Assembly (NCBI GenBank): GCA_041650755.1
Contig: JBAZKN010000001.1
Coordinates: forward strand, 70,796-134,795
DNA length: 64,000 bases
DNA from: Patescibacteria group bacterium
GTDB taxonomy: Bacteria > Patescibacteriota > Patescibacteriia > UBA1558 > GWA2-36-10
Reading direction: 5' to 3'
Shown: one piece after another, positions 1,398 to 63,945 of the stretch
Layout: each line of letters starts with the position of its first letter
Numbering within the stretch: the first letter of the stretch is position 1
Notes under the pieces: generated by a model
Databases searched by the model: none
Seen by the model: the letters and a program-made list of their open reading frames with translations, nothing else
What the model was told of the DNA's origin: nothing
Translations under genes and position numbers: made by a program

Positions 1398-3008
1398 ATG
1401 CCCCAAACAAAATTTATCTTTATAACCGGTGGAGTTTGTTCTGGTTTGGGTAAGGGTATCGCCTCAGCATCGATTGGGGCGATATTGCGTTCAGCTGGAT
1501 TTTCTGTATTTTCCCTGAAGCTGGACCCTTATCTAAATATTGATCCTGGCACCATGAGCCCCTATCAGCACGGTGAAGTTTATGTGACTGACGATGGAGC
1601 AGAAACCGATCTAGATTTGGGGCACTATGAGAGATTCATCGATGTCAATTTGACCAAATTATCAAATTTGACCACTGGGCAGATTTATGAAAAAGTTTTG
1701 CGCGGTGAGCGTAGCGGAGCATACTTAGGCAAAACCATCCAAATAGTGCCGCATATTACCGATGAAATAAAAAATTATATAAAATTAGCCGCCCAAGAAT
1801 CGCAAGCTGAGTTTGTGCTGATAGAAATCGGCGGCACAGTCGGGGATATTGAGGGCGAGCCATATCTGGAGGCAGCTCGGCAATTTCATCATGAGATGGG
1901 CGGGCATAATGTTTTATTTGTGCATTTGACGCTTTTGCCATTTTTGCGCACCTCGGGCGAGCTCAAGACCAAACCCACGCAAATGTCAGTCAGAGAATTA
2001 TTTCATCGTGGCATACAGCCGGATATTATTTTGGCGCGTTCTGATAAGCCAGTCACCAAAGAAGCGATTGCCAAGATTGCCTTATTTGCTGATGTGGCAG
2101 AAAGTGACGTGATTCCAGCGCCGACGGTGAGGACTATCTTTGAAGTGCCGATTAATTTTGAAAATAAATATAAAATTTCTGAACGTATTTTTTCCAAATT
2201 GGATTTGCCCAAAAGAAAAACTAAGCTTGAGCAGTGGGAAAAGTTGGTCAAAAATATTATCACTAATCATAAAAAGAAATTAGCCATTGCCTTGGTTGGC
2301 AAGTATAATGAAAACCTTGATGCTTATTTGAGCGTCGTTGAGGCATTGAAATCAGCTTGCTATTTTTCCAATGTTGCTTTGGATTTGGTCTGGGTAAATG
2401 CCGCTAAGCTTGAGAAAAAAGATAAGGCCGAATTGGCCAAACTGCAGAAAGTAGCCGGCATTGTGGTGCCGGGAGGATTTGGCCACCGCGGCATAGAGGG
2501 TAAAATCATGGCAGCTAAATATGCTCGGGAACACAAAAAACCATATTTGGGTTTGTGTTTGGGGATGCAGGTGGCTACCATTGAGTTCGCTCGCCATGCC
2601 CTCAATACTTTGGACGCAAATTCTACCGAATTTAATGCCAAGACAGCCAACCCAGTCATTCATATTTTGCCTGGCCACCATGAAGCAGAAGCCAAGGGAG
2701 GCACGTTGCGCCTGGGATCGTACCCTTGCGTTTTGGATAAGGATTCTTTGAGCTTTAAGGCTTATGGCAAGCTCAGGGTAGATGAGCGCCATCGGCATCG
2801 CTATGAATTTAATATGGATTATCGCGAGCGCATGGAAACGGCCGGTTTGCGTATTGCCGGAATCTCGCCGGATAAAAGATTAGTGGAAATAATTGAAATA
2901 AAGGATCATCCGTTTTTTGTGGCTGTGCAGTTTCATCCGGAGTTCAAGTCGCGTCCCTTTAGGCCGCATCCCTTGTTTCGGGACTTCATCAAAGCATCTT
3001 TAAAATAA
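1398..3008 (+). CDS. pyrG: CTP synthase
   Basis: N-terminus FIFITGGVCSGLGKG; C-terminal glutamine amidotransferase domain with GLCLGMQ and HPEF motifs; 536 aa. Confidence 0.95.
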   Translation: MPQTKFIFITGGVCSGLGKGIASASIGAILRSAGFSVFSLKLDPYLNIDPGTMSPYQHGEVYVTDDGAETDLDLGHYERFIDVNLTKLSNLTTGQIYEKVLRGERSGAYLGKTIQIVPHITDEIKNYIKLAAQESQAEFVLIEIGGTVGDIEGEPYLEAARQFHHEMGGHNVLFVHLTLLPFLRTSGELKTKPTQMSVRELFHRGIQPDIILARSDKPVTKEAIAKIALFADVAESDVIPAPTVRTIFEVPINFENKYKISERIFSKLDLPKRKTKLEQWEKLVKNIITNHKKKLAIALVGKYNENLDAYLSVVEALKSACYFSNVALDLVWVNAAKLEKKDKAELAKLQKVAGIVVPGGFGHRGIEGKIMAAKYAREHKKPYLGLCLGMQVATIEFARHALNTLDANSTEFNAKTANPVIHILPGHHEAEAKGGTLRLGSYPCVLDKDSLSFKAYGKLRVDERHRHRYEFNMDYRERMETAGLRIAGISPDKRLVEIIEIKDHPFFVAVQFHPEFKSRPFRPHPLFRDFIKASLK

Positions 3009-3131
3009 GATCCCGCACAGGTCGCTTAGGGTATTTTTTGGATGAAATAAAAAACTATGCTATAATAAATTAACTAATAAACTAAATAAAATAAATTAAT
3101 AATTAAATTTTATATTAACAGGGCAAATAAC

Positions 3132-3893
3132 ATGAAAATAAAAAAATTAGCATTAAATTTAAAAGGCGATACATCAACTTTTATTTTGCGCATCGTTGGC
3201 GTAGTATTATTAGCAGCCGTTTTGATTATTGCAATTGTCAGGGATCGGATAGTCAACCCGCCGCAGTGGCAGGTATCGGTAGTTGGCCAGGGCAAAGTGA
3301 CCTTTGTGCCGGATATTGCCAAAATTAATCTTGGCGTCAGAGTAGACAAGGTAGATAGCGCCGAAGAAGCTTTAAAGCAGATTAATACCAGCATGGGAAA
3401 AGTAATAACAGCCGTCACAGCTTTGGGTATAGACAAAAATGATATCAATACCCAGAATTATGCTTTGTATCCCCAGTACAATAATGTTGATAATATTAGT
3501 TCGGTGATTGGTTATGGCGCCAATGAAGATTTATTGGTGACAGTCAGAGGGATAGACAAGAATAATGATTTGGTTGGCAAAGTGATTTCTGAGGCAAGTA
3601 AAGCTGGGGCTAACCAAGTAAACGGTGTCAGTTTTGAGGCCAGCAATTTGGAGGGTTTGAAGCAACAAGCCAGGATTTTGGCCATTAGCGACGCTCGCAG
3701 CAAAGCCAAACAACTCTCAAGAGTGATGGGTGTGCGTTTGGGCAAGATAGTTAGTTGGTGGGAAAATTATCCAACCCCGTACTATGATGCTAAGGGCGGT
3801 TTGGGAGTAGGCGGCGGCACCTTACCAAGCAGCATTCCGACTGGTAGCGGCGAGATCTCAATGGAGATGAATATTAGTTATCAAATTAAGTAA
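3132..3893 (+). CDS. SIMPL/DUF541 family periplasmic protein (26 kDa periplasmic immunogenic protein-like)
   Basis: N-terminal TM; VSVVGQGKVTFVPDIAKINLGV... and ARILAISDARSKAKQL match the SIMPL-domain pattern. Confidence 0.75.
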   Translation: MKIKKLALNLKGDTSTFILRIVGVVLLAAVLIIAIVRDRIVNPPQWQVSVVGQGKVTFVPDIAKINLGVRVDKVDSAEEALKQINTSMGKVITAVTALGIDKNDINTQNYALYPQYNNVDNISSVIGYGANEDLLVTVRGIDKNNDLVGKVISEASKAGANQVNGVSFEASNLEGLKQQARILAISDARSKAKQLSRVMGVRLGKIVSWWENYPTPYYDAKGGLGVGGGTLPSSIPTGSGEISMEMNISYQIK

Positions 3894-6515: not shown

Positions 6516-7103
6516 TTATTTTTTCTTTTTAGCGGCTGATTTTTTTGGAGCAGTTTTTGCCTTTTTTTCTTTAGCTGGTTTTTTCGCCTTAATCTCTTTA
6601 ACCGTTGCTATTGGCTCTGTTTTTGTTACTGAATTTTTAGGTGCCAGGATTTTTATTAACTCGTCTATTTTGGCATTTAGTTTTTTGATCTCACTCATGA
6701 CATCCCCGGAATGTTGATTTATATTGCCGCCCTTACCAAAACAGTTATTACAATAAACCGGTTTGCCGGCAGTTGGCCGAAAAGGTATTTGGCAAGTCTG
6801 ACCGCATTTATCGCAAACCGCGTCATAAATTTGTTTACCGCCTCTATCACCACCGAATTTATTTGATCTGGCATTGCCGCCATCTTGTTTACCAAAGCAG
6901 TTACTGCAATAAATTGGTCGGTCACCAGTGGGCTTGAAAGGAACTTCGCAAGCATAGCCGCATTCACTGCAGATAGCTTTGTGCATTGTTTTAGCACCAT
7001 CTCGGCCGCCGAATCTTTTTCCGCCGCCAAATGATTTATTGCCGCCAAAACCACGATTAAAGCCACCCCCTTGGCGGTTGCGGTTTCTATCAAAATTTGC
7101 CAT
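6516..7103 (-). CDS. RGG-box / tandem CxxC(N17)CxxC zinc-ribbon / Lys-rich tail protein, a putative nucleic-acid-binding protein
   Basis: N-terminus GGGFNRGFGGNKSFGGGKRFGG; two copies of C-x2-C-x4-(V/I)PF-x-P-x5-P-(I/V)-YC-x2-CF; coiled-coil segment; C-terminal AKKPAKEKKAKTAPKKSAAKKKK. Confidence 0.75.
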   Translation of the reverse strand: MANFDRNRNRQGGGFNRGFGGNKSFGGGKRFGGRDGAKTMHKAICSECGYACEVPFKPTGDRPIYCSNCFGKQDGGNARSNKFGGDRGGKQIYDAVCDKCGQTCQIPFRPTAGKPVYCNNCFGKGGNINQHSGDVMSEIKKLNAKIDELIKILAPKNSVTKTEPIATVKEIKAKKPAKEKKAKTAPKKSAAKKKK

Positions 7104-7280: not shown

Positions 7281-7354
7281 TCGGGGATCGTCTAATGGTA
7301 GGACAGCGGCCTTTGGAGCCGTGAATCTAGGTTCGACTCCTAGTCCCCGAGCCA
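7281..7354 (+). tRNA. tRNA-Gln (anticodon TTG)
   Basis: Acceptor tcgggga/tccccga with U1-A72; U8; T-arm ctagg ttcgact cctag; anticodon loop ctTTGga; discriminator G plus encoded CCA. Confidence 0.85.
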
Positions 7355-7450
7355 AGCGAACGAAGTGAGCTTGGTTCGAAACTTCAAAGGATGCTCCGCA
7401 ATAGGCGGAGCAACCTAAGATGCTGCGCAATAGCGCAGCGCCCCGAGCCA
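7355..7450 (+). repeat. Reiterated tRNA-Gln 3'-end-derived unit with hairpins, copies R1 and R2
   Basis: atgctccgcaataggcggagc at 7391-7411 and atgctgcgcaatagcgcagcgCCCCGAGCCA at 7420-7450, which ends with the same 10 nt as the tRNA 3' end tccccgagcca. Confidence 0.7.
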
Positions 7451-7530
7451 TGCACCACCCATTCTCTCGCTATCACTCAATAATTTCGGGTGCATGGCAA
7501 AGCCACTGGGGTGAAAGGATACGTAGTGCA

Positions 7531-7613
7531 TGCAATGAACCCTAGCGTAGCGCATGGTTCATTGCAACAAAAACAAAATGATATGCTGCGCAATAGCGCA
7601 GCGTCCCGAGCCA
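7531..7613 (+). repeat. Third copy of the tRNA-3'-end repeat (R3) preceded by a perfect 11-bp hairpin
   Basis: tgcaatgaacc/ggttcattgca hairpin at 7531-7566; atgctgcgcaatagcgcagcgTCCCGAGCCA at 7583-7613, 30/31 identical to R2. Confidence 0.7.
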
Positions 7614-7695
7614 ATCAGTATGAGCATATAATCAAAAAAACAGAGTTGAAATCCCTGTTTTTATTTTTTATTGATAATTATAAAAATAAAAAAAG

Positions 7696-7736
7696 AGAGG
7701 TCTGTGGATGCGTGCGGCGCATCCAGAGCAGACCTC
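7696..7736 (-). terminator. Strong nested-hairpin rho-independent terminator for the minus-strand island B gene
   Basis: agaggtctg [tggatgcg tgcg gcgcatcca] gag cagacctct, followed on the minus strand by a T-rich run. Confidence 0.7.
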
Positions 7737-7765
7737 TCGAGTTCACAGCCACCCCTCAATCACTA

Positions 7766-7792
7766 GATGAGGGTGCAGAGGAGGAGTGGCTA
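7766..7792 (+). repeat. Left copy of a direct repeat bounding GC island B
   Basis: ATGAGGGTGCAG 12/12 identical and about 21/27 over the extended match to 9945-9971. Confidence 0.55.
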
Positions 7793-8143
7793 CGGCAGGT
7801 CTCCCAGCCAGCCGTCATCGCCGTATTCGGTCTCGATGTAGATCGAGACCAGACAGAGCCAATTGAACGCCGTCCGCGCCCAGTTGAACTCCTTGGCGGT
7901 CTCGCAGTAGATGCTGTCGAACACATCGGCCTGGGCGTTCGTCGGACCGATGATCGACATCATGCTCTCGATCGCGGTGATGACAGCGGTGGCCGGCGGC
8001 GAAGCGACAGCGGGCATCATCGTCGTCAGGACGATCTCGTTCGGCTGCGGCGGCATGGTCGCGTTGTGCTGCGGCAAAGGCACGGCCATCAAGACCGTGA
8101 TCGCCAGCGTGCACAAGCCGATCAAAACGACATTCCTCTTCAT
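7790..8143 (-). CDS. Small secreted protein (signal peptide) on GC island B, hypothetical
   Basis: RBS cgaggagaggaac before ATG at 8143 (MKRNVVLIGLCTLAITVLMAVPLPQ...); about 60% GC; track ORF trimmed to this start; the long plus-strand ORF 7490..8206 is an antisense artefact. Confidence 0.6.
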   Translation of the reverse strand: MKRNVVLIGLCTLAITVLMAVPLPQHNATMPPQPNEIVLTTMMPAVASPPATAVITAIESMMSIIGPTNAQADVFDSIYCETAKEFNWARTAFNWLCLVSIYIETEYGDDGWLGDLP

Positions 8144-8231
8144 GTTCCTCTCCTCGCGTTGGTGGGGAAGCTGGACGCAAATCAAAGAACCTGGGTTACC
8201 GGCTGATAGATTCCTCCTTTCCCGAGGGACG

Positions 8232-8921
8232 TTAGCGAAACAGAGCTGTTTGCCTGGGCGCTACGATGCCTGGGTCCAGCGCGATGCTGGCGACTTGAGC
8301 GCCGAGGTATCGGCGCTCTACTAGCACCCAGACGATCTTTTTGGTTCCGTCCGGCTCTTGCGTATTGAACGCATTGTTGCTGAACTCCACCACTTGCCTG
8401 CGGCTATCGCACAAAGGCTCTCTTCCTCTTTGTTCTTGGAAGCACAGAACGCCACTGTCGCTGACAGGGATGGTCGAAGAGTCAGCGGTCGAGATGTACA
8501 GGGTGATTGTGCCTCGGCGGAAGAGAATCTTGTAGTCGTCTGGCATGGTGATGGCCAGGCGATACACTACCAGGTTGGGGTTGGTGACCAACTTGGACAG
8601 GAGATAGTCGGAGCGGGGATGCGGGGTGATAGGCTTACCATCCGGGTCAACGCCAGTCATCAATTGCTTGATACCGGCCATAGATGCTGGGACACCGCGA
8701 TCCCTGAACAACTGGTCAAGCTCTTGTATGCGCCTGTCGTACCATTGCTTGGGATCGCCCCAGCCGCTGTTCATGGTAGAGAAGATCACGTCTGGAGTCA
8801 GGCTAGGTAGCGGAGTGTAGGTGATGTCCGTCGGCCTGCCAGCGATTGCCGCTGTGTCTAGCAGTCCAAGGCCGCAAAAGACAATCAGCGACAGGATGAG
8901 GAAAGCGACTCTTCTCAACAT
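8232..8921 (-). CDS. Secreted hypothetical protein (230 aa) on GC island B
   Basis: AGGAG RBS 7 nt before ATG at 8921; signal peptide MLRRVAFLILSLIVFCGLGLLDTAAIAG; about 60% GC. Confidence 0.65.
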   Translation of the reverse strand: MLRRVAFLILSLIVFCGLGLLDTAAIAGRPTDITYTPLPSLTPDVIFSTMNSGWGDPKQWYDRRIQELDQLFRDRGVPASMAGIKQLMTGVDPDGKPITPHPRSDYLLSKLVTNPNLVVYRLAITMPDDYKILFRRGTITLYISTADSSTIPVSDSGVLCFQEQRGREPLCDSRRQVVEFSNNAFNTQEPDGTKKIVWVLVERRYLGAQVASIALDPGIVAPRQTALFR

Positions 8922-9127
8922 GTTGGTACTCCTTCTGCCCCTTTGGGGCAATGAGGGGTTGCTTTTCAAAGAACCGATTGGCTGGCTTTTGGCCGCCATT
9001 ATGTCAACTCTCGTTAACTCTTTATATAAATACTTACGTGGTTTTTTGTCAAGACTTGACCTTTTGCATAGACAAAAACCCCACTAAGTGAGGCCTTTTA
9101 TCATTATTTGGGTTATTTTCTTGGGAT

Positions 9128-9207
9128 AAGTGCCGGTTACGCCACTAGCTCTTGATTACCTATTTGGCGTCCAAAATATGGATGGTAATCAGTCATTGCC
9201 TCACTTT
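9128..9207 (+). repeat. Structured repeat copy A: conserved 5' box, variable 7-bp stem, conserved loop
   Basis: gccggttacgcCactagctcTt / GATTACC ...ggcgtcca.aata... GGTAATC / agtcattgcctca. Confidence 0.7.
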
Positions 9208-9385
9208 TAGTATATTTTATATATACACCTTTTTCAAATATTTTGCAATACATGTATCTGAAGATAAGGAGGGGCCTGCCATGAACAGATAGAGAACTAG
9301 CTGTAGGCAGGCCCGGATGCTAAGTGTCAGATTTGGCACTTAGCCATGAGGATCAGTTTGGTAAGTGGTTGGAGGTTGGGGGGGG

Positions 9386-9793
9386 TCAGCAGGAGACGGC
9401 GAAGAAAGTCTCGATGTACTCGACAAAGCGCATGACGTTGAAAGGTTTGGACCAGAAAGGCACGCGATAGAGTTCTTGCAGGTGGCGGACTTGATCGGTG
9501 TGGTGGTGTCCAGTCAGGATGACCGAACACTTCTGAGACATCTCCATGTCATAAACCAGACCACAGAGCCAGCCGCCATCCACTTCGCTGGTTTCGGCGA
9601 TGATCACATCGGGGAATGGCCTGGTGCTGGCCAAAAGCCCGATGACGTCGACTGGGTGGAGCACCATCTTGGGGCTAGTGCTGCCCTTGGGCAGCACTAT
9701 GTTGGTCAGTACTTCGTGACCATTGCCTTCAAGAGCCTGGCACAGAGCGGTGATGGTGCTGTGGTCTTTGTCAAAAATGAAGATGCGCGACAT
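9386..9793 (-). CDS. Stand-alone atypical receiver (REC)-like protein with Glu replacing the phospho-acceptor Asp
   Basis: GGAGG RBS; IFIFDKDH (acid pocket), PDVIIAETSEVDGG (Asp to Glu), SVILTGHH (conserved Thr), WSKPF (conserved Lys); GC-rich. Confidence 0.55.
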   Translation of the reverse strand: MSRIFIFDKDHSTITALCQALEGNGHEVLTNIVLPKGSTSPKMVLHPVDVIGLLASTRPFPDVIIAETSEVDGGWLCGLVYDMEMSQKCSVILTGHHHTDQVRHLQELYRVPFWSKPFNVMRFVEYIETFFAVSC

Positions 9794-9944
9794 GGTCGTT
9801 GACCTCCTAGTCCCTTTATGGACTTCCTTGTGGTGATTGATTTACCATTCCCATTTGCTGAAAATGGCCAACAAGGCTTGCCAGACATCGTTGAACTTAT
9901 TCACGATTTTCTACCTCTGGTTGATGAGTAACAAAAAGACACCC

Positions 9945-9971
9945 AATGAGGGTGCAGGAAGGAGAGTAGCC
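9945..9971 (+). repeat. Right copy of the direct repeat bounding GC island B
   Basis: ccaATGAGGGTGCAGgaaggagagtagcca. Confidence 0.55.
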
Positions 9972-9980
9972 AAAAGCCAT

Positions 9981-10053
9981 TATGCCGGTTACGCTACTAG
10001 CTCCTAATCGTTCAAGCGTCCATATACAAACGATTATTCACAGCCTCATTTTG
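9981..10053 (+). repeat. Structured repeat copy B
   Basis: tatgccggttacgctactagctcct / AATCGTT caagcgtccatataca AACGATT / attcacagcctcatttt. Confidence 0.7.
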
Positions 10054-10133
10054 ATCCTCGATATATTGAAATGAACTTTAACAAAATACACCTCCCATTT
10101 AAGAGGCGTAACCGTTAAAGTCATTTTGACTAT

Positions 10134-10203
10134 TATGCCGGTTACGCTACTAGCTCCTGACCACCCAAGCGTCCATATACAGGTGGTCATTCATAGCCTC
10201 ATT
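10134..10203 (+). repeat. Structured repeat copy C
   Basis: tatgccggttacgctactagctcc / TGACCACC caagcgtccatataca GGTGGTCA / ttcatagcctcatta. Confidence 0.7.
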
Positions 10204-10269
10204 AGTGTATTATATTGTTAACAATTAGCAATATATCATATTACCCATATTTTGTCAATAGGGGATAAA

Positions 10270-42897: not shown

Positions 42898-45354
42898 ATG
42901 GAATTTACCGTTGAAAATATAGCTGTTGTCATTAGCCTGGTTATTATTCTTAGTATTATTTTTCCCGTGATCGCAAATTATCAAAAAAATAAGGTTGATA
43001 AGAATTTAAAATTGGACATGTTATTGATTAAAGTGCCGAAATATACCAAGCAAGAAAAAGAAGAGTTGTCCAAACAATACATTGAACAGACTTTAGGTAA
43101 AATTGAAAATTTTTTTTCTGCCCTAGCTGGCCTCAAGGCCGAACATCCTTTTTTGGGGCAAGCCAAAGAAATTTTTTCCCTAGATATTGTTTCGGTAGAT
43201 GGTTTTATAAATTTTTACGCGGCCGTGCCGCCAAAATTTAAAGACTTCTTTATTGCCCAGCTGCAGGCTGTCTATCCCAAAATTTATGTAGAAGAAGTGG
43301 TTGATTATAATATTTTTCAGCCACAAGGACAGGTCTTGGCTGGCAATTTATCTTTTGCCAATGATTTTACTTTACCCATCAAGACATATAAGACTTTTGA
43401 AAATGACCCCTTAGAGGGAATTACCAATACCTTAAGTAAGCTGACCAACGACGAATCGGCTGTTGTGCAATATGTCTTTAAATCTGCCCCCAAAAAATGG
43501 CATCAACGCGGCCGTCAACTGGCTCAAAAAATGCAAGCCGGAGCTACTTTTGCCGATGCTATTAAACAGGTTGGTGGCACTTCTTTTTTTGATAAATTGG
43601 AAAAAACAGGTAGTTTTTTTGGCAGCTTTTTTGCTACCAGTAAAAAAGAGGATGAGCAAAAAAAGAAATCCCTGGAAGTCAAACAGCCCTTGTCAGCCAT
43701 GGAACAAGAGCGGGCCAAAAGCCTAGAAGCAAAAACTTCTAAAGCTGGTTTGGATGTCAATATTCGCATCGTAGTTTCAACCAGAAGCTTGGAGCGCTCC
43801 AAGGCAGTTTTACTGGACGTTCTCAATAGCTACAATCAATATAATATTTATGAGTTTGGCAATCGTTTTCAAGCCAGTATACCGCGCCACCCGGATACTA
43901 TTATTGAGTACTTGATTTATCGACATTTTTCAAACAAGCGTAAACTTTTGCTCAACGCTGAGGAAATGGTCAGCGTGGTGCATCTGCCTTTACCGACCAC
44001 TGAAACGCCAAATATTGATTGGCTAGAAGCTGTCAAGGCGCCACCGCCCAGCAGTCTGCCCAGCGAAGGCATTATTTTGGGCAAAAGCATTTATCGTGGC
44101 AAAGAAACTTTGGTGCGCATCAAGGATGCTGATCGTCGGCGACACATGTACGAAATCGGCCAGACCGGTACTGGTAAGTCTGCCTTTATGGAAAGCTTGA
44201 TTAAACAGGATATTGAAGCTGGCAAAGGATTGTGCGTGATTGATCCGCACGGTGAATTGGTAGAAAGATGCTTAACCTATATACCAAAAGAAAGAGCCGA
44301 AGACGTGATTGTTTTTGATCCATCGGATACTGATCGGCCAGTAGCCATTAACATGTTGGAATATGATACCGATGAACAGAAGACTTTTGTGATCAACGAA
44401 ATGATCGCTATCTTTGATAAGCTTTATGATCTGAAAGCTACTGGTGGGCCGATGTTTGAGCAATATATGCGTAATGCAATGCTTTTGGTGATGGACGACA
44501 AAGATTCGGGAGCGACTTTGTTGGAAGTGCCGAGAGTCTTGTCAGATGAAGCTTACCGCAAGCACAAGTTGAGCAAGGTCAAGAACCGCTTAGTCAAAGA
44601 TTTTTGGGAAAAAGAAGCGCAAAAAGCCGGCGGTGAAGCGTCCCTAGCCAATATGGTACCCTATATCACTAGCAAGCTCACGCCTTTTATTGCCAATGAT
44701 ATCATCCGGCCGATTATTGCCCAGCAAAAAAGCGCTTTCAATTTTCGTGAAGCAATGGATAGCAAAAAGATTATCATGATCAATCTATCCAAGGGCAAAA
44801 TTGGTGACATGAATAGTAGCCTTTTGGGCATGATTATTATTGGTAAACTACTATTTGCCGCTTTGAGCAGAGCGGATTATACTGAAGAGCAACGCAATGA
44901 TTTTTATCTCTATATTGATGAGTTCCAAAATTATACTACCGATAGTATCGCTATTATTTTATCCGAAGCCAGAAAATACAAACTGAATTTAATTATCGCT
45001 CATCAGTATATCGCTCAGCTGGTAAAAAATAACGACACCAAGATTCGAGATGCTGTTTTTGGCAATGTCGGCACTATCATCGCTTATCGTCTAGGCGTAG
45101 AGGACGCAGAGGTGATTGCCAAGCAAATGGCCCCGGTGGTTACTGAATATGACCTGATCAATATGCCAAAATTTACGGCTTATATAAAATTATTGATTGA
45201 TAATGCCAATCCGCCAGCCTTTAATTTTAATCCCATTAGGCCGGAAAAAGGCAACTTTGAGCTAGCGGCGGCCATCAAACAATTGTCTCGATTAAAATAT
45301 GGCCGTGATAGAAAAACAGTAGAAGACGAGGTTCAGCAAAGGATTATCATTTAG
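42898..45354 (+). CDS. Membrane-anchored FtsK/HerA-superfamily (VirB4/VirD4/DUF87-like) P-loop ATPase, fused N-domain plus ATPase
   Basis: N-terminal TM; Walker A IGQTGTGKS followed by VIDPHGEL (DPHGE signature); Walker B YIDEFQNY; ARKYKLNLIIAHQYIAQL; FGNVGTIIAYRLG. Confidence 0.75.
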   Translation: MEFTVENIAVVISLVIILSIIFPVIANYQKNKVDKNLKLDMLLIKVPKYTKQEKEELSKQYIEQTLGKIENFFSALAGLKAEHPFLGQAKEIFSLDIVSVDGFINFYAAVPPKFKDFFIAQLQAVYPKIYVEEVVDYNIFQPQGQVLAGNLSFANDFTLPIKTYKTFENDPLEGITNTLSKLTNDESAVVQYVFKSAPKKWHQRGRQLAQKMQAGATFADAIKQVGGTSFFDKLEKTGSFFGSFFATSKKEDEQKKKSLEVKQPLSAMEQERAKSLEAKTSKAGLDVNIRIVVSTRSLERSKAVLLDVLNSYNQYNIYEFGNRFQASIPRHPDTIIEYLIYRHFSNKRKLLLNAEEMVSVVHLPLPTTETPNIDWLEAVKAPPPSSLPSEGIILGKSIYRGKETLVRIKDADRRRHMYEIGQTGTGKSAFMESLIKQDIEAGKGLCVIDPHGELVERCLTYIPKERAEDVIVFDPSDTDRPVAINMLEYDTDEQKTFVINEMIAIFDKLYDLKATGGPMFEQYMRNAMLLVMDDKDSGATLLEVPRVLSDEAYRKHKLSKVKNRLVKDFWEKEAQKAGGEASLANMVPYITSKLTPFIANDIIRPIIAQQKSAFNFREAMDSKKIIMINLSKGKIGDMNSSLLGMIIIGKLLFAALSRADYTEEQRNDFYLYIDEFQNYTTDSIAIILSEARKYKLNLIIAHQYIAQLVKNNDTKIRDAVFGNVGTIIAYRLGVEDAEVIAKQMAPVVTEYDLINMPKFTAYIKLLIDNANPPAFNFNPIRPEKGNFELAAAIKQLSRLKYGRDRKTVEDEVQQRIII

Positions 45355-52746: not shown

Positions 52747-54429
52747 ATGAATAAATATCAGTCCAGTTCTCATAAGGTTATGTCTGCCCAGAGAGTTAAG
52801 ATTACTTTTGTGGCCATTATTATTTTGGCTATTTTGGGTTGCTTGGTGGCCCTGCCAAAACCAGGCTTTATACCCAATAATAATTGGTTTAGGCAGTTTA
52901 AAATACACTTGGGCCTTGATTTGCAGGGCGGCACCCATCTGGTTTATCAAGCAGATGTATCACAAGTGCCGGATAATGAGCGTCGCGATAGAGTGGAAGC
53001 CTTGCGGGACGTGATTGAACGCCGGGTAAACGCCTATGGCGTGTCTGAACCGGTTGTCCAGACCAATTATAGCGGCGATAATTATCGTATTATTGTTGAG
53101 CTGGCCGGGGTGACCGATGTCAATCAAGCTATCAGTATTATCGACAAGACTCCTTTGCTCGAATTCAAGACACAAGGCCAGGCTCCTATTGATAATAATG
53201 ACCAGAATGCCGTTCGTGATAAAGCCAACGACATATTACAGCGAGTACTGAAGGGCGAAGACTTTGCTGAGCTAGCCAAGCAATATAGTGAGGATCCAGT
53301 TTCAGCTGCTCAAGGCGGAGATTTGCCTTGGGTGACCAAAGGCAAATTTGTCCCAGAATTTGATACAGCCATTTTTGATCAGCTAAAGACAGGCGAGGTA
53401 GATAAACAATTAGTTGAATCTCAATTTGGCTATCATATTATCAAAAAAATAGAGGAGAGAACCAATGACAGTGGCGAAAAGGAAGTCCATGCCGCCCATA
53501 TTTTGATAAAAAAAATTGACGCTGATATGGTCTGGGAGGATACTTCTTTGAGTGGCCGCAATATCAAAAAAGCCGAGTTAAGCTTTGATCAGAATACTCA
53601 AGAGCCCTTGGTCTTAATTAACTTTGATGACCAGGGTAAAGAAATTTTTGCTGATCTGACCACTGCCAACGTCGGTAAGCCAATCGCCATATTTTTGGAT
53701 GGAGTTTTACGCTCTGAGCCGGTTGTGCAAGAAGCTATTACTGACGGAAGTGCCCAGATTTCCGGAAAATTCACCATCAAAGAAGCCAAACAGCTCGTCA
53801 AAGACTTGAATTTAGGCGCCCTGCCTGTGCCAATAAAACTAGTGACTCAACAAACAGTTGGCCCTACTTTGGGGCAAGTGTCGCTAGACAAAAGTTTGAT
53901 AGCTGGCATTATTGGTTTTTTGGCAGCTGCTTTATTTATGCTCATTTTGTATCGTTTGCCGGGTATTTTAGCAGTGGTGGCCTTGGGGCTATATACTATT
54001 TTGAGTTTGAGTATTTTTGAAATTATACCAGTAACCATGACCATGGCCGGCATTGCTGGTTTTATTCTATCTATCGGCATGGCTGTGGATGCCAATATTT
54101 TAATATTTGAAAGAACCAAAGAAGAGTTATATAAAGGCAAAACTTTATGGACTGCCATTGAAGAAGGATTCAGCAGAGCTTGGCCATCAATTCGCGATTC
54201 AAATGTTTCCTCAATTATTACTTGTATAATTTTGGCTTGGTTTGGCACTTCGATTATCAGAGGTTTTGCTATTACCTTGGGGATAGGTATCTTGGTGTCC
54301 ATGTTTTCCGCCATTACCGTGACCCGCACCTTCTTGTACTTAGTTGTTAACAAAAAATTAGAAAATAAATTGAGTTGGTTTGGCGTACATATTACTAAAA
54401 CCACCGAAGAACAACAAAACCATGTATAG
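52747..54429 (+). CDS. secD: Protein translocase subunit SecD with a parvulin-like (PpiC-type PPIase) insertion
   Basis: LGLDLQGGTHLVYQAD and the SecD TM bundle; inserted segment (about 53180-53530) EDFAELAKQYSEDPVSAAQGGDLPWVTKGKFVPEFDTAIF...SQFGYHIIKKIEER...VHAAHILIKK. Confidence 0.85.
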   Translation: MNKYQSSSHKVMSAQRVKITFVAIIILAILGCLVALPKPGFIPNNNWFRQFKIHLGLDLQGGTHLVYQADVSQVPDNERRDRVEALRDVIERRVNAYGVSEPVVQTNYSGDNYRIIVELAGVTDVNQAISIIDKTPLLEFKTQGQAPIDNNDQNAVRDKANDILQRVLKGEDFAELAKQYSEDPVSAAQGGDLPWVTKGKFVPEFDTAIFDQLKTGEVDKQLVESQFGYHIIKKIEERTNDSGEKEVHAAHILIKKIDADMVWEDTSLSGRNIKKAELSFDQNTQEPLVLINFDDQGKEIFADLTTANVGKPIAIFLDGVLRSEPVVQEAITDGSAQISGKFTIKEAKQLVKDLNLGALPVPIKLVTQQTVGPTLGQVSLDKSLIAGIIGFLAAALFMLILYRLPGILAVVALGLYTILSLSIFEIIPVTMTMAGIAGFILSIGMAVDANILIFERTKEELYKGKTLWTAIEEGFSRAWPSIRDSNVSSIITCIILAWFGTSIIRGFAITLGIGILVSMFSAITVTRTFLYLVVNKKLENKLSWFGVHITKTTEEQQNHV

Positions 54430-55330
54430 AATTATTCAAAAAAAAGCGCTTTGGTTTTCCATTTCAGCTATTGTCTGCGGAGCATCTCTGTTGGCTTTAT
54501 TGATCTGGGGACTAAGGCCTGGCATTGATTTTACCGGCGGTAGCTTGCTGGAAGTTTCTTATTCTCAAGCTAGACCCGGCTTCCAGGCAGTAGAGGAAGC
54601 GCTTAAAGATGTTCAGCTCAAGGACCTCAAAATCCAGCCCAGCGGCGATAGAGACTATATCTTAAGATTTGAAAGTATTGATGAGACACAGCACCAAACT
54701 ATTTTATCCAAGCTGCAGGATATTAAGCTGGATAACATCAATGATAATAAGCTGACCGAAAATCGCTTTGAATCTATTGGGCCCACTATCGGCGTAGAGC
54801 TAAAAAATAAAGCTATCCAATCCATTATTGTGGTTTTGATCTGTATTTTACTTTATATTGCTTATGCTTTTAGAAAAGTTTCCAAACCAGTAGAATCCTG
54901 GAAATATGGCGTGGCAGCCATCATCGCTTTGCTGCACGACGTGATTGTGGTGTCTGGTGTATTTGCGATTCTCGGCTACTTTGCCGGGATAGAGATAGAT
55001 AGCTTATTTGTGACTGCTTTATTGACTGTCTTAGGTTTTTCTGTGCACGATACCATAGTAACCTTTGATCGTATTAGGGAAAATTTGTTCAGAAGTCGTA
55101 ATTATGATGATTTCGAGGACATTATCAACTCCAGTGTCAACGAAACAATCATTAGGTCTTTAAATACCTCGTTGACCACGCTTTTAGCTTTGCTGGCAAT
55201 TTATATTTTTGGCGGGGAAAGCACCAGATACTTTGTCTTGGCTCTAATTATTGGTATTATTACCGGTACCTACTCATCTATCTTTATTGCTTCACCAATT
55301 GTTTTATTGTTTAATAATAAAAATAAATAA
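54422..55330 (+). CDS. secF: Protein translocase subunit SecF
   Basis: SecF TM topology; LDFTGGSLLEVSY; start MYRIIQKK overlaps the secD stop by 8 nt. Confidence 0.85.
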   Translation: MYRIIQKKALWFSISAIVCGASLLALLIWGLRPGIDFTGGSLLEVSYSQARPGFQAVEEALKDVQLKDLKIQPSGDRDYILRFESIDETQHQTILSKLQDIKLDNINDNKLTENRFESIGPTIGVELKNKAIQSIIVVLICILLYIAYAFRKVSKPVESWKYGVAAIIALLHDVIVVSGVFAILGYFAGIEIDSLFVTALLTVLGFSVHDTIVTFDRIRENLFRSRNYDDFEDIINSSVNETIIRSLNTSLTTLLALLAIYIFGGESTRYFVLALIIGIITGTYSSIFIASPIVLLFNNKNK

Positions 55331-55368
55331 TCGCATAATATTTTTCACTTTCTGTCAAGAAAATATAT

Positions 55369-55391
55369 ATACCCCCAAAATAAAGGGGGTA
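55369..55391 (+). terminator. Rho-independent terminator after secF
   Basis: tacccccaaaataaagggggta followed by a T-containing tail. Confidence 0.6.
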
Positions 55392-55422
55392 TTCAGTTTA
55401 AAGAAAATTATTATTTTTATTT

Positions 55423-55440
55423 AATATTAGCCAAAAAATG
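55423..55440 (+). repeat. Conserved intergenic motif core AATATTAGCCAAAA, copy 2
   Basis: Shares the 14-nt core with 45360..45381 and 63760..63781. Confidence 0.5.
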
Positions 55441-55496
55441 ACATTATTTTAAACTCTATTTTGCGTTTTTTCTATTTGAGGGTTGACTTATTTTAA

Positions 55497-55550
55497 AAAA
55501 TGTGTTATTCTATGAAATGTTTAAAAAGTAAACACATTTTTAAACGTTTA
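55497..55550 (+). promoter_or_regulatory. Nested palindromic operator-like site immediately upstream of the sigma-r4/HARE-HTH gene
   Basis: aaatgtttaaaaa...tttttaaacgttt (13-nt arms, 1 mismatch) plus aaatgtgtt/aacacattt; ends 11 nt before the ATG. Confidence 0.5.
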
Positions 55551-55560
55551 AGTAAAACAT

Positions 55561-56667: not shown

Positions 56668-56786
56668 ATGAGATTTTATTACAAGAACAACCGGTTTCCA
56701 CTTGGGGCGGTTGTTTTTGTTTCCTACTACTTTAAAAATTTTGCAAAAAAAGGTATAATATACTGGTAGCCCATCAAAAAATAGCT

Positions 56787-58289
56787 ATGAATTTTAGCGT
56801 TGAGGTCAATAATTTTATCAATACACTACTGACTATAGGTTCTTTGCCACCGGATATAGCTTTTATTTATTTAATGACCCACTATATCTGGCCAATTTAT
56901 GTTGTCATGATTTTATGGATGGCTTATGATGTTTGGCTGACGTCTCTGCAGAATAAGTGGTTTGCTACTCACAAGTTCATCCTTTTGGCTATTGATATAC
57001 CTAAAGATACCGAACAGACACCAAAGGCTATTGAGCAACTATTTGCCACCCTATCAGGCGCTCATACGCCCATCAGTACTCGCGATAAATATGCTGGCAT
57101 GTTTCAGCTGTCATTTTCTTTTGAAATTGTCAGTATAGACGGCTATATTCAATTTTTGATTCGCACTCCCAGCCACTGGCGGGATCTGGTAGAGAGTTCC
57201 ATTTATTCACAGTATCCCGATGCAGAGATCACTGAAGTGGAGGATTATACCACTGATTTGCCGCGTAAATTTCCCGACGACAAATACAATATGTGGGGTG
57301 CGGAAATAGTTTTGGTAAATAAAGATGTTTATCCCATAAAAACTTATATTGATTTTGAAGATGCGGTTTCCGGAGAATTCAAAGATCCAATGGCCTCAAT
57401 TTTGGAAACTATGAGTAAAATACAGGCCGGTGAACAGGTCTGGGTGCAGCTGATAGTCAGACCGACTGACCACCTCTGGACTAATCGTAGCAAAGCTGAA
57501 GCCGACAAATTGGCTGGTAAAAAGGTTAAAGCACAGAAAGGTTTATTGGAAAGACTGTTTGGCCCTCTGTTTGGTTTATTTTTCCTGTCTGGCGGCGACT
57601 CTATTTTTTGGCCAACTGGCGCTGAATCCAAATCAGAAAAAAAGGCCAATGAACCAATTAGCTTGATGCTGTATATGACCCCGGGAGAGAGAATAAAGAT
57701 TGAAGCAGTAGAAAAAAAGGCATCCAAAATAGGCTTTCAATGCAAAATTCGCTTGGTCTATCTATCGCCCAAAGAGCAGTATAATCCCGGCAGGGTAGTT
57801 TCTTCGGTGTTTGGTTCGCTGAAACAGTTTAGCACCATGCATTTGAATTCTTTTAAGCCCGATGCTAAAACCAAGACCAAAATAGAGTGGATTATGGTCA
57901 AAACCAGGACCAATTGGCGCCGTACAAACCTCATTAGAGCCTATAAGAGCCGCAGCGGCATCATCGGACATGGCTATTTTATATTAAATACCGAAGAACT
58001 AGCTACTTTGTGGCACTTTCCTAGCAAATTTATTCGCACGCCTTTATTGCAAAAAACAGAGTCCAAAAAAGCCGAACCGCCAGCTTCTTTGCCTATTATG
58101 TCTGGAATTTTTGATACCCAGACCGAGCAGGCAAGCGCTGAATTACGCCAGCAGCTAAAAACAGTGCCGGAATTCAATATACCCCTGGACAATACTTATT
58201 TTGAGGAGCGCTTTGCCAAAGACAAAAGCCAGGTCAAGCCAAGACATACAAAAAACGAGCCACCGACTAATCTACCCGTTACCAAATAA
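56787..58289 (+). CDS. Membrane-anchored N-domain protein, paralogue of the N-terminal half of 42898..45354
   Basis: 2 TM at the N-terminus; FSFEIVSIDGYIQFLIRTPSHWRDLVESSIYSQYPDAEITEVEDY aligns with FSLDIVSVDGFINFYAAVPPKFKDFFIAQLQAVYPKIYVEEVVDY. Confidence 0.65.
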   Translation: MNFSVEVNNFINTLLTIGSLPPDIAFIYLMTHYIWPIYVVMILWMAYDVWLTSLQNKWFATHKFILLAIDIPKDTEQTPKAIEQLFATLSGAHTPISTRDKYAGMFQLSFSFEIVSIDGYIQFLIRTPSHWRDLVESSIYSQYPDAEITEVEDYTTDLPRKFPDDKYNMWGAEIVLVNKDVYPIKTYIDFEDAVSGEFKDPMASILETMSKIQAGEQVWVQLIVRPTDHLWTNRSKAEADKLAGKKVKAQKGLLERLFGPLFGLFFLSGGDSIFWPTGAESKSEKKANEPISLMLYMTPGERIKIEAVEKKASKIGFQCKIRLVYLSPKEQYNPGRVVSSVFGSLKQFSTMHLNSFKPDAKTKTKIEWIMVKTRTNWRRTNLIRAYKSRSGIIGHGYFILNTEELATLWHFPSKFIRTPLLQKTESKKAEPPASLPIMSGIFDTQTEQASAELRQQLKTVPEFNIPLDNTYFEERFAKDKSQVKPRHTKNEPPTNLPVTK

Positions 58290-58291
58290 AT

Positions 58292-60001
58292 ATGAATGTT
58301 AATGATATAACAACTTTTGCTGAGACTAATTTCCGTAATTCACGGGTAAAGTTTGGTATTAAGACAGACGATAGGCGCCGACATATGTATATTATCGGTA
58401 AAACTGGCATGGGTAAATCAACCTTGTTGGAAAACATGATCATTCAGGACATCCAGGCCGGCAAAGGAGTTTGCGTAGTCGATCCACATGGTGAGCTGGT
58501 TGAAAAAGTGATTGATTTTATACCACAGAACCGCATCAATGATGTAATTTATTTCAATCCCGCTGACCTTGAATACCCGATAGCCTTTAATGTGCTGGAA
58601 AGCGTCAACATCGAGCAACGCCATTTGGTAGTTTCTGGATTGATCGGTGTCTTTAAAAAGATCTGGGCTGATTCCTGGGGCCCAAGACTAGAATATGTTC
58701 TGCATCATGCAATTTCTGCTTTGCTGGAATATCCTGGCTCGACCCTTTTGGGCATTATGCGCATGCTGACGGACAAAAAGTTTCGTGAGCGGGTAGTTGA
58801 TAAAGTGACCGATCCAGTGGTAAAGGCCTTTTGGGTTGATGAATATTCTCGTTATCCAGACAATCTCAAGGCCGAAGCCATTGCTCCGATTCAAAACAAG
58901 GTAGGCCGATTTTTATCCTCTTCTTTGATTAGAAACGTCCTGGGCCAGGTCAGATCTTCCTTCTCAATGCGGGAAATTATGGATGGCAAAAAAATATTGT
59001 TACTAAATTTATCCAAAGGCAGGGTGGGCGAGGATAACTCGGCTTTACTTGGCTCCATGATGATCACCAAGATTCAGCTGGCTGCCATGAGCCGGATAGA
59101 TACCCCGGAACAGGAGCGCAATGATTTTTACCTTTATGTTGATGAATTTCAAAATTTTGCCACCCAAAGTTTTGCCAATATTCTATCAGAAGCGCGTAAG
59201 TATAGGCTGAACTTGATCATGGCCCACCAATATATTGATCAATTAAAATGGGGTAATGATGAAACGGTCAAGTCGGCAGTCTTTGGTAATGTCGGCACCA
59301 TCATTGCTTTCCGCGTTGGTGCTACTGATGCGGAATTTCTGGAAAAAGAATTTTTCCCGGTTTTTACTCAAGAAGATTTGGTCAATCTGTCTAAATACGA
59401 AATTTATCTAAAATTAATGGTTGATGGCGTAGCCACTGAGCCATTTTCAGGAGTAGGCTTGCCGCCGGTAATATTACCTGCCGAATCAATCGGCATCAAA
59501 GAAAAGGTGATCAAAGTATCCAGAGAAAGATATGCCAAGCCCCGCGAGATTATTGAAGATAAAATCGCTCGTTGGGCAGAAAATAAAGAGGGCAAAGAGC
59601 CAGAAAAAAACAGCAAAGAAGACAGAGTAAAAAAATCCAAAAAAAAAGGCGATGAGGAAAGAAAATCTGGTTCCAAAAAGCCAAAAATCAGCAAAATAAT
59701 AAATTGCACTTACTGCGGTAAAGAAGCGGAAATCAATTTTGAGCCCGATCCTACTAGGCCAGTATACTGCGATGATTGTTTGATACTGGCCAAACAAGGA
59801 AAAATTCCCTCTCCTACCAGTATCAAAATACTCAAAGAAGAGTCAGCCAGTAAAAAAGTAGATGATGATCAGACCAAAGAACAGTTTATCTCTCTATCGG
59901 AAGCAATAAAATCAAATAATCTTCATTCTGGCAAAGAAAAAAGTAAGCAAGTGGCCGAGGATGAGCATCTGCTTCAGCCAGGACAAATTGTTAAGTTTTA
60001 A
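58292..60001 (+). CDS. FtsK/HerA-superfamily (VirB4/VirD4/DUF87-like) ATPase with C-terminal Lys-rich linker and zinc ribbon
   Basis: IIGKTGMGKST Walker A; VVDPHGELVE; YVDEFQNF Walker B; ARKYRLNLIMAHQYIDQL; C-terminus CTYCGKEAEINFEPDPTRPVYCDDC. Confidence 0.75.
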   Translation: MNVNDITTFAETNFRNSRVKFGIKTDDRRRHMYIIGKTGMGKSTLLENMIIQDIQAGKGVCVVDPHGELVEKVIDFIPQNRINDVIYFNPADLEYPIAFNVLESVNIEQRHLVVSGLIGVFKKIWADSWGPRLEYVLHHAISALLEYPGSTLLGIMRMLTDKKFRERVVDKVTDPVVKAFWVDEYSRYPDNLKAEAIAPIQNKVGRFLSSSLIRNVLGQVRSSFSMREIMDGKKILLLNLSKGRVGEDNSALLGSMMITKIQLAAMSRIDTPEQERNDFYLYVDEFQNFATQSFANILSEARKYRLNLIMAHQYIDQLKWGNDETVKSAVFGNVGTIIAFRVGATDAEFLEKEFFPVFTQEDLVNLSKYEIYLKLMVDGVATEPFSGVGLPPVILPAESIGIKEKVIKVSRERYAKPREIIEDKIARWAENKEGKEPEKNSKEDRVKKSKKKGDEERKSGSKKPKISKIINCTYCGKEAEINFEPDPTRPVYCDDCLILAKQGKIPSPTSIKILKEESASKKVDDDQTKEQFISLSEAIKSNNLHSGKEKSKQVAEDEHLLQPGQIVKF

Positions 60002-63856: not shown

Positions 63857-63945
63857 ATGGGCGTAGCTCAGTCAGGATCCCGGCCGGAAAGAGCGCTGCA
63901 TTATCGGTGCAGAGGTCGCAGGTTCAAATCCTGCCGCCCATACCA
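63857..63945 (+). tRNA. Atypical 89-nt tRNA with a 13-nt palindromic D-loop insertion and nominal anticodon ATC (Asp codon GAU); isotype uncertain
   Basis: Acceptor atgggcg/cgcccat; U8; D-stem gctc/gagc enclosing agtcagg-atcccggccggaa-a; anticodon arm ctgca ttATCgg tgcag; T-arm gcagg ttcaaat cctgc; encoded CCA. Confidence 0.55.

Follow-up and report, generated by a model that had tools for sequence, protein, structure and literature searches.

Proteins in which two CxxC pairs lie 17 residues apart are named in one paper that we found, a proteomics study of the archaeon Methanosarcina mazei, in which two of them (A00184 and A01980) were detected with high confidence and shown by inductively coupled plasma mass spectrometry (ICP-MS) to bind zinc (PMC12704099). 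Here we analyze a stretch of 64,000 nucleotides from a Patescibacteria group bacterium (contig JBAZKN010000001.1, positions 70,796 to 134,795; hereafter the window), in which a domain of the same name occurs twice in a small protein of 195 amino acids (aa) and once in the C-terminal tail of a P-loop ATPase. The likeness to A00184 and A01980 is one of domain name, and these differ from the window proteins in being short archaeal proteins for which no RG-rich head, helix or Lys-rich tail is reported.

The closest described counterparts of the ATPase are TrwB (R388), VirD4 and TraD, with which it shares a P-loop core and an all-alpha domain and, in the case of TraD, a C-terminal extension past the motor. 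It departs from them in having no N-terminal anchor, which is found instead on a separate DUF8128 protein, in carrying a zinc finger in its tail, and in its chromosomal housekeeping setting. Linker-tethered recognition modules that choose the substrate or adaptor are known behind hexameric motors of the FtsK/HerA superfamily (the FtsK gamma domain, the C-terminal tails of TraD and DotL), but these are a winged helix or unstructured peptide rather than a finger. For the small protein, retroviral nucleocapsid, CNBP and FUS-type proteins offer a comparison, as nucleic-acid chaperones that set small zinc modules within Arg/Gly- or Lys-rich disordered segments. This comparison is by analogy only, since their modules are CCHC knuckles or RanBP2-type fingers with no sequence or fold kinship to those described here.

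Identity, fold and distribution of the shared finger

A six-frame scan of the window for the C..C-x17-C..C pattern returned three matches, two in the small protein and one at the C-terminus of the ATPase (Table 1), exactly those listed in a sequence-only reading of this DNA that preceded our analysis, while 50 base shuffles of the window gave a mean of 0.08 matches and a maximum of 1. The CxxC pairs are exactly 17 residues apart in all three fingers. Against TIGR04272 the 195-aa protein scores 111.6 bits over two stretches (cut-off 36) and against PF23477 112 bits (cut-off 27); the ATPase tail is barely over the cut-off of the former model with 37.0 bits and reaches 39.6 bits (E 4e-10) with the latter. 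Because all copies exceed the curated cut-offs of one domain family, their relationship goes beyond equal spacing and they are homologous, as the proposal of a shared module had assumed. By these matches the motif is the catalogued TIGR04272/PF23477 domain (cxxc_cxxc_Mbark, or “CxxC-x17-CxxC domain-containing protein,” in NCBIfam; zf_Tbcl_2, or “probable treble clef zinc finger,” in Pfam), a treble-clef-type finger of about 35 residues predicted to hold a single zinc. The window copies agree with both models in spacing, in the PF-x-P core and in the (V/I)(F/Y)C that precedes the last CxxC, and we see no difference at the domain level, the ATPase-tail subtype being divergent. An origin by chance, or as a generic zinc motif, is ruled out by the shuffles, by the curated profile scores and by the rarity of the motif among representative proteins (see below). 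Since TIGRFAMs and Pfam already model the domain and both window proteins bear this name or domain in NCBI/JGI records, the finding is not a new kind of element.

The term zinc ribbon, used in the sequence-only reading, has to give way to treble clef on the basis of predicted structure. In AlphaFold2 (AF2) models the first CxxC of both small-protein fingers is borne by a hairpin, at residues 41–44/51–54 in finger 1 and 93–96/103–106 in finger 2, with predicted local distance difference test (pLDDT) scores of 82–88 and 83–87, respectively. The ATPase finger (aa 468–501, block-mean pLDDT 75–84) has a hairpin at 468–471/478–481. In finger 1 and in the ATPase finger a helix begins at the second CxxC (residues 67–73 and 494–501, respectively), whereas for finger 2 no helix is called, and the two-hairpin arrangement with a three-stranded sheet that characterizes a zinc ribbon does not occur in the predicted structures of the window fingers. 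Pfam, too, files PF23477 as a treble clef. The window fingers would be expected to bind zinc, as measured solely for the Methanosarcina proteins named after this domain.

When PDB sequences were searched with profiles of the entire small-protein family and of the finger alone, no match was significant, the best being the zinc site of the adenylate-kinase lid (E 0.15) and RNA polymerase subunit P (E 0.011, CxxCG knuckle only). Fold searches returned weak, class-level matches only (PHD, LIM, FYVE-like, E7 CR3 and similar). Our literature search likewise found no paper on TIGR04272, PF23477, zf_Tbcl_2, DUF8128, PF26449, PF13451 or a Patescibacteria zinc-finger RNA-binding protein.

With the four cysteines left aside, identity is 52% between the two small-protein fingers and 29% between these and the ATPase-tail finger, which has INF-x-PDP in place of their VPF-K/R-PTG; judged from sequence, the tail finger is an old, divergent subtype. 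The small-protein fingers carry a fifth cysteine (CxxCGxxC; C52 at 6951–6953 and C104 at 6795–6797) that is kept in 100% and 99% of the roughly 119 family members examined, whereas threonine replaces it in 88% of ATPase-tail fingers. This residue could be a spare ligand or a redox-sensitive one, and oxidized cysteines are mentioned for the M. mazei domain proteins (PMC12704099). The cores of the three subtypes have net charges of −1.1, +1.1 and −0.6 and are thus about neutral.

A scan of one genome per species places relatives of the small protein in at least 583 genomes. In bacteria they range over Paceibacteria, Uhr-, Davies-, Dojka-, Falkow-, Komeili- and Saccharibacteria, Gracilibacteria, Peregrini-/Peribacteria and Microgenomates/Levybacteria, and in archaea over DPANN (Pace-, Woese-, Nano- and Undinarchaeota) with one Nitrososphaerota metagenome-assembled genome (MAG). 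The DPANN versions are 86–110 aa long, with two fingers on an RG/RN-rich linker and usually without the helix and Lys-rich tail. Run against 1.84 billion representative proteins, a profile of the finger alone, built without DPANN rows, picked up 7,125 with E <= 0.001, of which 3,195 have E <= 1e-10. The 150 top-ranking matches among the 7,125 are all proteins of 93–339 aa with 2–5 fingers, and none of them is a fusion to a helicase or another ATPase, for which the earlier reading had proposed to look; single-copy fusions may rank below these. Two of the multi-copy clusters that we checked bear a name, both Thermoplasmatota MAGs. The family is small and, judging by the named matches, concentrated in Patescibacteria and DPANN, with a few further groups of archaea.

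The 80 species loci described below, about 0.8 Mb in all, contained no further genuine architecture, the additional pattern matches there being an Fpg-type finger and a spurious open reading frame (ORF). A phage origin of the small protein was considered and rejected, as it matches no PHROG and gives 7 weak matches in 2.9 million viral contigs. A third architecture does occur in five IMG/VR contig loci (around position 2850–3280), where proteins of about 90–115 aa join a PF13451 zf_Tbcl finger to one PF23477 finger by an RG-rich linker; the Pfam assignment was checked on one of them. PF13451 is, like PF23477, a “probable treble clef” C4 module, and its RG-rich link to zf_Tbcl_2 follows the construction principle of the two-finger protein; it differs in being a separate Pfam family with longer spacing that is absent from the window. 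Many species-representative MAGs with the small protein are labeled “uncultured Gammaproteobacteria” or “Pseudomonadales” (third-party annotation assemblies), labels that look unreliable.

The two-finger protein and its gene neighborhood

The 195-aa protein is identical over its full length (100%) to an NCBI Patescibacteria protein. Its AF2 model, computed from an alignment of the family, is confident for the two fingers and for the helix that follows them, and of low confidence elsewhere, where the chain is probably disordered. The Gly/Arg-rich composition of the head and the Lys-rich tail described in the sequence-only reading are both present (31% Gly and 23% Arg/Lys in aa 1–39); the term RGG-type fits less well, for a 30-member alignment shows few strict RGG triplets and more FGG/RG/NR-like repeats. 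In this alignment the family plan consists of an MGNFNR start, an RG/FGG-rich stretch, finger 1 (consensus M-H-x-A-x-CSECG-x2-C-E-V-PF-K-P-T-G-D-R-P-V-F-C-S-x-CF), an Arg-rich linker, finger 2, the helix (Q-x-K-M-L-N-x-K-L-D-x-L-x-K-x-L; K145 invariant, D147 and L153 nearly so) and a Lys-rich tail whose AKKKK ending is conserved.

A homolog search with the protein returned 592 sequences, and our family statistics refer to the best 120 of these. They are mostly about 200 aa long with PF23477 as sole annotation, those that bear an organism name are all named for Patescibacteria lineages, and 118 contain exactly two fingers. On average, 26% of the N-terminal region is Gly and 22% Arg/Lys, while the region behind finger 2 contains 27% Lys. 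The hairpin that directly follows the gene (Table 1) is, from its sequence, likely a two-way intrinsic terminator, and with such a structure at its end the finger gene looks monocistronic. Consensus scans upstream of it for a cold-shock-like leader or a promoter were uninformative.

To describe the surroundings of the gene we used 80 species loci, in which ORFs were called and clustered and recurrent clusters identified with NCBIfam. ABC-F ATPases are the most frequent (11 full-length members, within a wider ABC cluster at about 20 loci), followed by small GIY-YIG proteins (10 loci), CshA/RhlE-like DEAD-box RNA helicases (9 loci), the ribosome-biogenesis GTPase EngB/YsxC (8 loci, in 7 of them within 1 kb), cold-shock proteins (Csp; 6 loci), TypA/BipA (6 loci, each time directly adjacent) and SWIB-domain proteins (4 loci). 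Genes of the five translation/RNA families among these (ABC-F, DEAD-box helicase, EngB/YsxC, Csp and TypA/BipA) were counted together, and 33 of the 80 loci have one or more of them within about 5 kb, compared to about 8 expected under a rough random-placement null; since this null ignores the shared ancestry of the loci, the associated P-values are indicative only. The order ABC-F, finger gene, EngB on one strand recurs in one genome each of Minisyncoccales, Paceibacterota and Saccharibacteria. Among four further loci obtained by exact protein look-up, a Csp gene is adjacent in one, a Pif1 helicase gene in another and both in a third, and the immediate neighbors at five DPANN loci, viewed by eye, formed no pattern. 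Patescibacteria keep only about half of the usual ribosome-biogenesis factors, and bipA, engB, yheS (an ABC-F) and rhlE are on the factor table of the study that reports this (PMC12641178).

The finger-tailed ATPase and its finger-less paralog

The ATPase is a 569-aa P-loop protein (58292–60001, plus strand) that is 100% identical to an NCBI Patescibacteria protein, encoded on the same 405-kb MAG contig as the NCBI match of the small protein. PF10412 (TrwB_AAD_bind) covers aa 24–343 with an E of 5.8e-14, accompanied by matches to PF02534, PF12696 and PF01935 (T4SS-DNA_transf, TraG-D_C, DUF87/HerA), and the Walker A (GKTGMGKS, aa 36) and Walker B (YLYVDE, aa 280) motifs are invariant in 54 orthologs. 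The AF2 model built from these orthologs has a predicted template modeling (pTM) score of 0.70, with helices at 107–217, and the PDB fold that matches it best is that of TrwB (E ~1e-10 over about 418 aligned columns), with HerA, DotL, Cag-beta and VirB4 ranking lower. Among NCBIfam TraD/VirD4 models the best is TIGR03743 with 51.5 bits against a cut-off of 366, so the similarity is at the superfamily level only. No hydrophobic segment that could serve as an N-terminal membrane anchor was found within the ATPase; one is present in the 500-aa protein whose stop codon lies 2 nt ahead of the ATPase start. Orthologs of this 500-aa protein beside the ATPase gene at four related loci match PF26449 (DUF8128), and on the sequence evidence the 569-aa protein is a coupling ATPase of TrwB/VirD4 type whose partner is a DUF8128 membrane protein.

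The ATPase is flanked by genes for SecD, SecF, a sigma-r4/HARE-HTH protein, an AMP-/nucleoside-phosphorylase-like protein and MnmA, and the order SecD, SecF, sigma-r4/HARE-HTH, DUF8128, ATPase is the same in the window (52747–60001) and at the four loci, which derive from two orthologs with 69% and 61% identity to the window ATPase. SecD carries a peptidyl-prolyl isomerase (PPIase) insert, the protein with sigma70 region 4 and HARE-HTH is 368 aa long, and in one of two related loci SecA lies just upstream of this gene order. Pfam scans covered 34 of the 53 window ORFs that are 150 aa or longer, and no VirB4 or relaxase was found among these 34 proteins. Patescibacteria have roughly two VirD4-type homologs per genome and relaxases are rare in them; of 5,713 homologs of type IV coupling proteins (T4CPs) in this group, 148 lie near virB4 (PMC12102498). 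Neither “zinc” nor “zinc finger” appears anywhere in its text.

Behind the motor core come a disordered linker, the finger and three short conserved motifs (Table 1). In the family, the 45 residues ahead of the finger contain 27% K/R and 16% D/E, and a short helix is predicted at residues 535–543, at the FISLxEAL motif. PF23477 is found on 117 of the best 120 homologs of the ATPase (60–81% identity), and the other three are C-terminally truncated, so that 117 of 117 full-length homologs carry the finger. The window also encodes a paralog of 818 aa in which DUF8128 and ATPase are fused. Its C-terminal half is 44% identical to the 569-aa ATPase (E 1e-121) in an alignment that ends where the C-terminal extension of the latter starts, and its N-terminal half, with a hydrophobic segment at aa 8–26, is 27% identical to the 500-aa DUF8128-like protein (E 4e-31). 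Such a fusion, an architecture also modeled by PHROG 5156, shows that DUF8128 and ATPase go together. The fused gene is flanked by three small ORFs without Pfam matches and by dnaX. Among its best 120 homologs (53–79% identity) none has PF23477, while all have PF26449, and many entries of the two homolog sets report longest contigs of identical length. This suggests that both paralogs share one contig in other genomes as they do in the window, in keeping with the roughly two VirD4-type homologs per genome mentioned above.

With 117 of 117 orthologs on one side and 0 of 120 paralog homologs on the other, the finger is a stable accessory of one paralog rather than a sporadic fusion. The expectation that the motif would be lineage-specific and enriched on ATPase tails, instead of belonging to a generic and ubiquitous family, thus holds, as it is both rare (7,125 of 1.84 billion proteins) and systematic on the tail of this ATPase.

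Table 1. Coordinates of the features discussed in the text (window positions; AF2, AlphaFold2; pLDDT, predicted local distance difference test; aa, amino acids; ORF, open reading frame).
Feature	Position	Strand	Basis or remarks
Gene for 195-aa CxxC-x17-CxxC domain-containing protein, two fingers	6516..7103	-	ORF, TIGR04272 and PF23477 matches
Gly/Arg/Phe-rich N-terminal region, aa 1-39, predicted disordered	6987..7103	-	Composition, pLDDT <50
Finger 1 core, C45-C69, CSECGYACEVPFKPTGDRPIYCSNC	6897..6971	-	Motif scan and profiles
Finger 2 core, C97-C121, CDKCGQTCQIPFRPTAGKPVYCNNC	6741..6815	-	Motif scan and profiles
Conserved amphipathic helix, aa 132-153, MSEIKKLNAKIDELIKIL	6645..6710	-	AF2 model and family alignment
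Lys-rich C-terminal tail, aa 154-195, ends AAKKKK	6519..6644	-	38% Lys
Symmetric GC-rich hairpin between A and T runs, 8 nt past stop codon	6476..6508	.	14-pair stem, 7 GC pairs
TrwB/VirD4-like coupling-ATPase core, aa 1-430, no transmembrane segment	58292..59581	+	Pfam, motifs, AF2
DUF8128-like partner, 500 aa, one N-terminal hydrophobic segment (aa 24-42)	56787..58289	+	ORF; PF26449 in orthologs
Lys/Glu-rich disordered linker, core to finger	59582..59689	+	pLDDT <50, aa 434-465
Finger 3 core, C472-C496, CTYCGKEAEINFEPDPTRPVYCDDC, ATPase-tail subtype	59705..59779	+	Motif scan, profiles, AF2
Tail motif GKIPxPSSIK, aa 503-512, directly behind finger	59798..59827	+	Aligned tails
Tail motif FISLxEAL, aa 532-540	59885..59911	+	S534, L535, A538 conserved at 90% or more
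C-terminal motif PGQ(V/I)(I/V)KF, at or near C-terminus, ends most listed tails	59978..59998	+	Aligned tails
Paralog, fused DUF8128-ATPase, 818 aa, no finger	42898..45354	+	PF10412
Tandem c-di-GMP-II aptamers	10127-10210, 9974-10057	-	65.5, 64.1 bits; upstream of 135-aa ORF 9386-9793
Third c-di-GMP-II aptamer	9122-9212	-	43.3 bits, below gathering score, E 2e-7

The window as a whole is ordinary chromosome, encoding among others CTP synthase, RecJ, a penicillin-binding protein, MurJ, LepA, DnaX, SecDF, MnmA and RNase P RNA. Between tRNA-Gln (7281–7354) and a ZIP transporter gene there is a region (7400–10210) with a GC content of 0.52–0.62 compared to about 0.40, which looks like an acquired island. 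On its minus strand lie three cyclic di-GMP (c-di-GMP)-II riboswitch aptamers, the third upstream of a 255-aa ORF (8232–8999) with an N-terminal hydrophobic stretch (possibly a signal peptide or transmembrane segment) and no Pfam match, and a 40-nt direct repeat (7411–7450 and 7574–7613) follows the tRNA. Another tRNA, at 63857–63942 (Rfam 57.3 bits, 86 nt against a 71-position model), was not called by ARAGORN and may be one with a long variable arm or otherwise unusual.

Possible functions of the two proteins and their significance

The interpretation towards which we lean, with confidence somewhat better than even, is that the two-finger protein is a nucleic-acid chaperone, probably of RNA in ribosome assembly or translation, and that the ATPase finger is a tethered substrate- or adaptor-recognition module of the split paralog. 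In the small protein, two fingers standing between a Gly/Arg-rich disordered head and a helix with a Lys-rich tail would make up such a chaperone, the charged disordered segments supplying affinity and the fingers a defined grip in the style of retroviral nucleocapsid or CNBP, and it would act on RNA during ribosome assembly or translation. In the ATPase, a flexible linker rich in Lys and Glu would connect the divergent finger to a soluble hexameric motor of TrwB/VirD4 type, which the product of the preceding DUF8128 gene presumably anchors in the membrane; together with the three tail motifs, the finger would pick the substrate or adaptor of the split paralog. We infer the chaperone role, with RNA or pre-ribosomes likelier than DNA, by analogy with nucleocapsid/CNBP-type proteins, and, in the same way, that of the ATPase tail by analogy with the FtsK gamma domain and with its counterparts in TraD and DotL. 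The sequence-only reading had considered the finger as a shared nucleic-acid-binding module, which would hint that the ATPase system handles nucleic acid. Composition and neighborhood do fit a chaperone of nucleic acid, probably RNA, but the roughly neutral finger cores lend no direct support to binding, so that this proposal stands only in part; the finger may add shape or base recognition, or bind protein instead. The hint concerning the ATPase comes more directly from its TrwB/VirD4 homology, and membership of this family gives stronger, independent grounds for suspecting a role in the translocation of nucleic acid or protein. ATPases of this type couple protein substrates, too.

Several observations weigh against the interpretation just given. 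The finger cores are about neutral and their invariant residues (four Cys, F and P) could be purely structural, T4CP tails often bind proteins and not nucleic acids, and PDB sequence and fold searches found no solved structure or characterized relative of the domain. The neighborhood signal is moderate and uncorrected for shared ancestry, some of the neighbors (Pif1 helicase, SWIB, GIY-YIG) point to DNA, and the signal is absent from the window itself, where the finger gene adjoins an aminotransferase gene and tRNA-Gln. Moreover, the t4cp homolog of a cultured Saccharibacterium is not essential for epibiotic growth (PMC12102498).

It is possible, although we consider it rather doubtful, that the finger is a protein–protein interaction module or a zinc module with a structural role only, which both proteins would have through a common protein partner or simple domain reuse, with no bearing on nucleic acid. 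Treble clefs of the nearest fold classes (PHD, LIM, FYVE-like, E7 CR3) for the most part bind protein, which agrees with this possibility, as do the near-neutral cores and the three short conserved tail motifs, typical of protein docking sites, in an ATPase whose relatives TraD and DotL bind partner proteins through their C-terminal tails. It accounts poorly for the fact that in the small-protein family, DPANN versions included, the fingers always lie within RG-rich and Lys-rich segments, for the architecture in which zf_Tbcl and PF23477 are joined by an RG-rich linker, and for neighborhoods biased to RNA and ribosome factors. The same neighborhoods bear on a DNA-centered alternative, in which the small protein would be a histone-like nucleoid protein and the ATPase finger would grip translocated DNA during relaxase-independent uptake or export, DNA being the shared ligand. 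The Lys-rich tail resembles H1-like tails, Pif1 helicase, SWIB and GIY-YIG genes recur nearby, the ATPase belongs to a DNA-translocase superfamily (fold matches to TrwB, HerA and VirB4), and the rarity of relaxases in Patescibacteria (PMC12102498) would suit such a route; the genes found most often and closest by, however, encode factors of translation and of the ribosome (ABC-F, EngB, BipA, DEAD-box RNA helicase, Csp), and we judge this alternative unlikely.

A direct connection between the two proteins, in which the small protein would serve the finger-tailed ATPase as client or adaptor, with the fingers recognizing each other and the Lys-rich C-terminus acting as a positively charged type-IV-like export signal, seems barely plausible. 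Both proteins do contain the same domain, both families are widespread across Patescibacteria and the positively charged C-terminus of the small protein is conserved, but the genes are 51 kb apart in the window, neither family's gene was seen near the other at the further loci examined, the finger subtypes share just 29% identity when the cysteines are left aside, and the DPANN versions are without the Lys-rich tail. Finally, it is a long shot, but the two-finger protein could be a lineage-specific RNA chaperone or ribosome-assembly factor by which Patescibacteria and DPANN, both of them ultra-small symbionts, offset lost biogenesis factors, with the finger-tailed, relaxase-less ATPase using its own finger to take RNA or ribonucleoprotein (possibly the small protein) as membrane cargo in a conjugation-independent traffic between symbiont and host.

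Three aspects appear to be undescribed in the searchable literature, namely the two-finger architecture with its spread over Patescibacteria and DPANN, the bias of the small-protein gene's neighborhood to ribosome-biogenesis genes, and the strict tie of the finger to one of two T4CP-like paralogs. As leads, the architecture, neighborhood and paralog relationships are useful but remain predictions, and the classification of the domain is unchanged by them.

Many conserved proteins of the vast and largely uncultured Patescibacteria and DPANN have no assigned function. The two-finger protein, being conserved in both and found preferentially beside retained ribosome-assembly factors, is a candidate for an “unknown factor” in ribosome building (PMC12641178). 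Another puzzle of Patescibacteria is the role of their orphan VirD4-type ATPases, which number in the thousands (PMC12102498). At least in the lineage studied here, these ATPases resolve into two paralogs, one fused to DUF8128 and one split from it that always carries the finger and the three tail motifs, and this split provides a concrete handle on what each ATPase recognizes.

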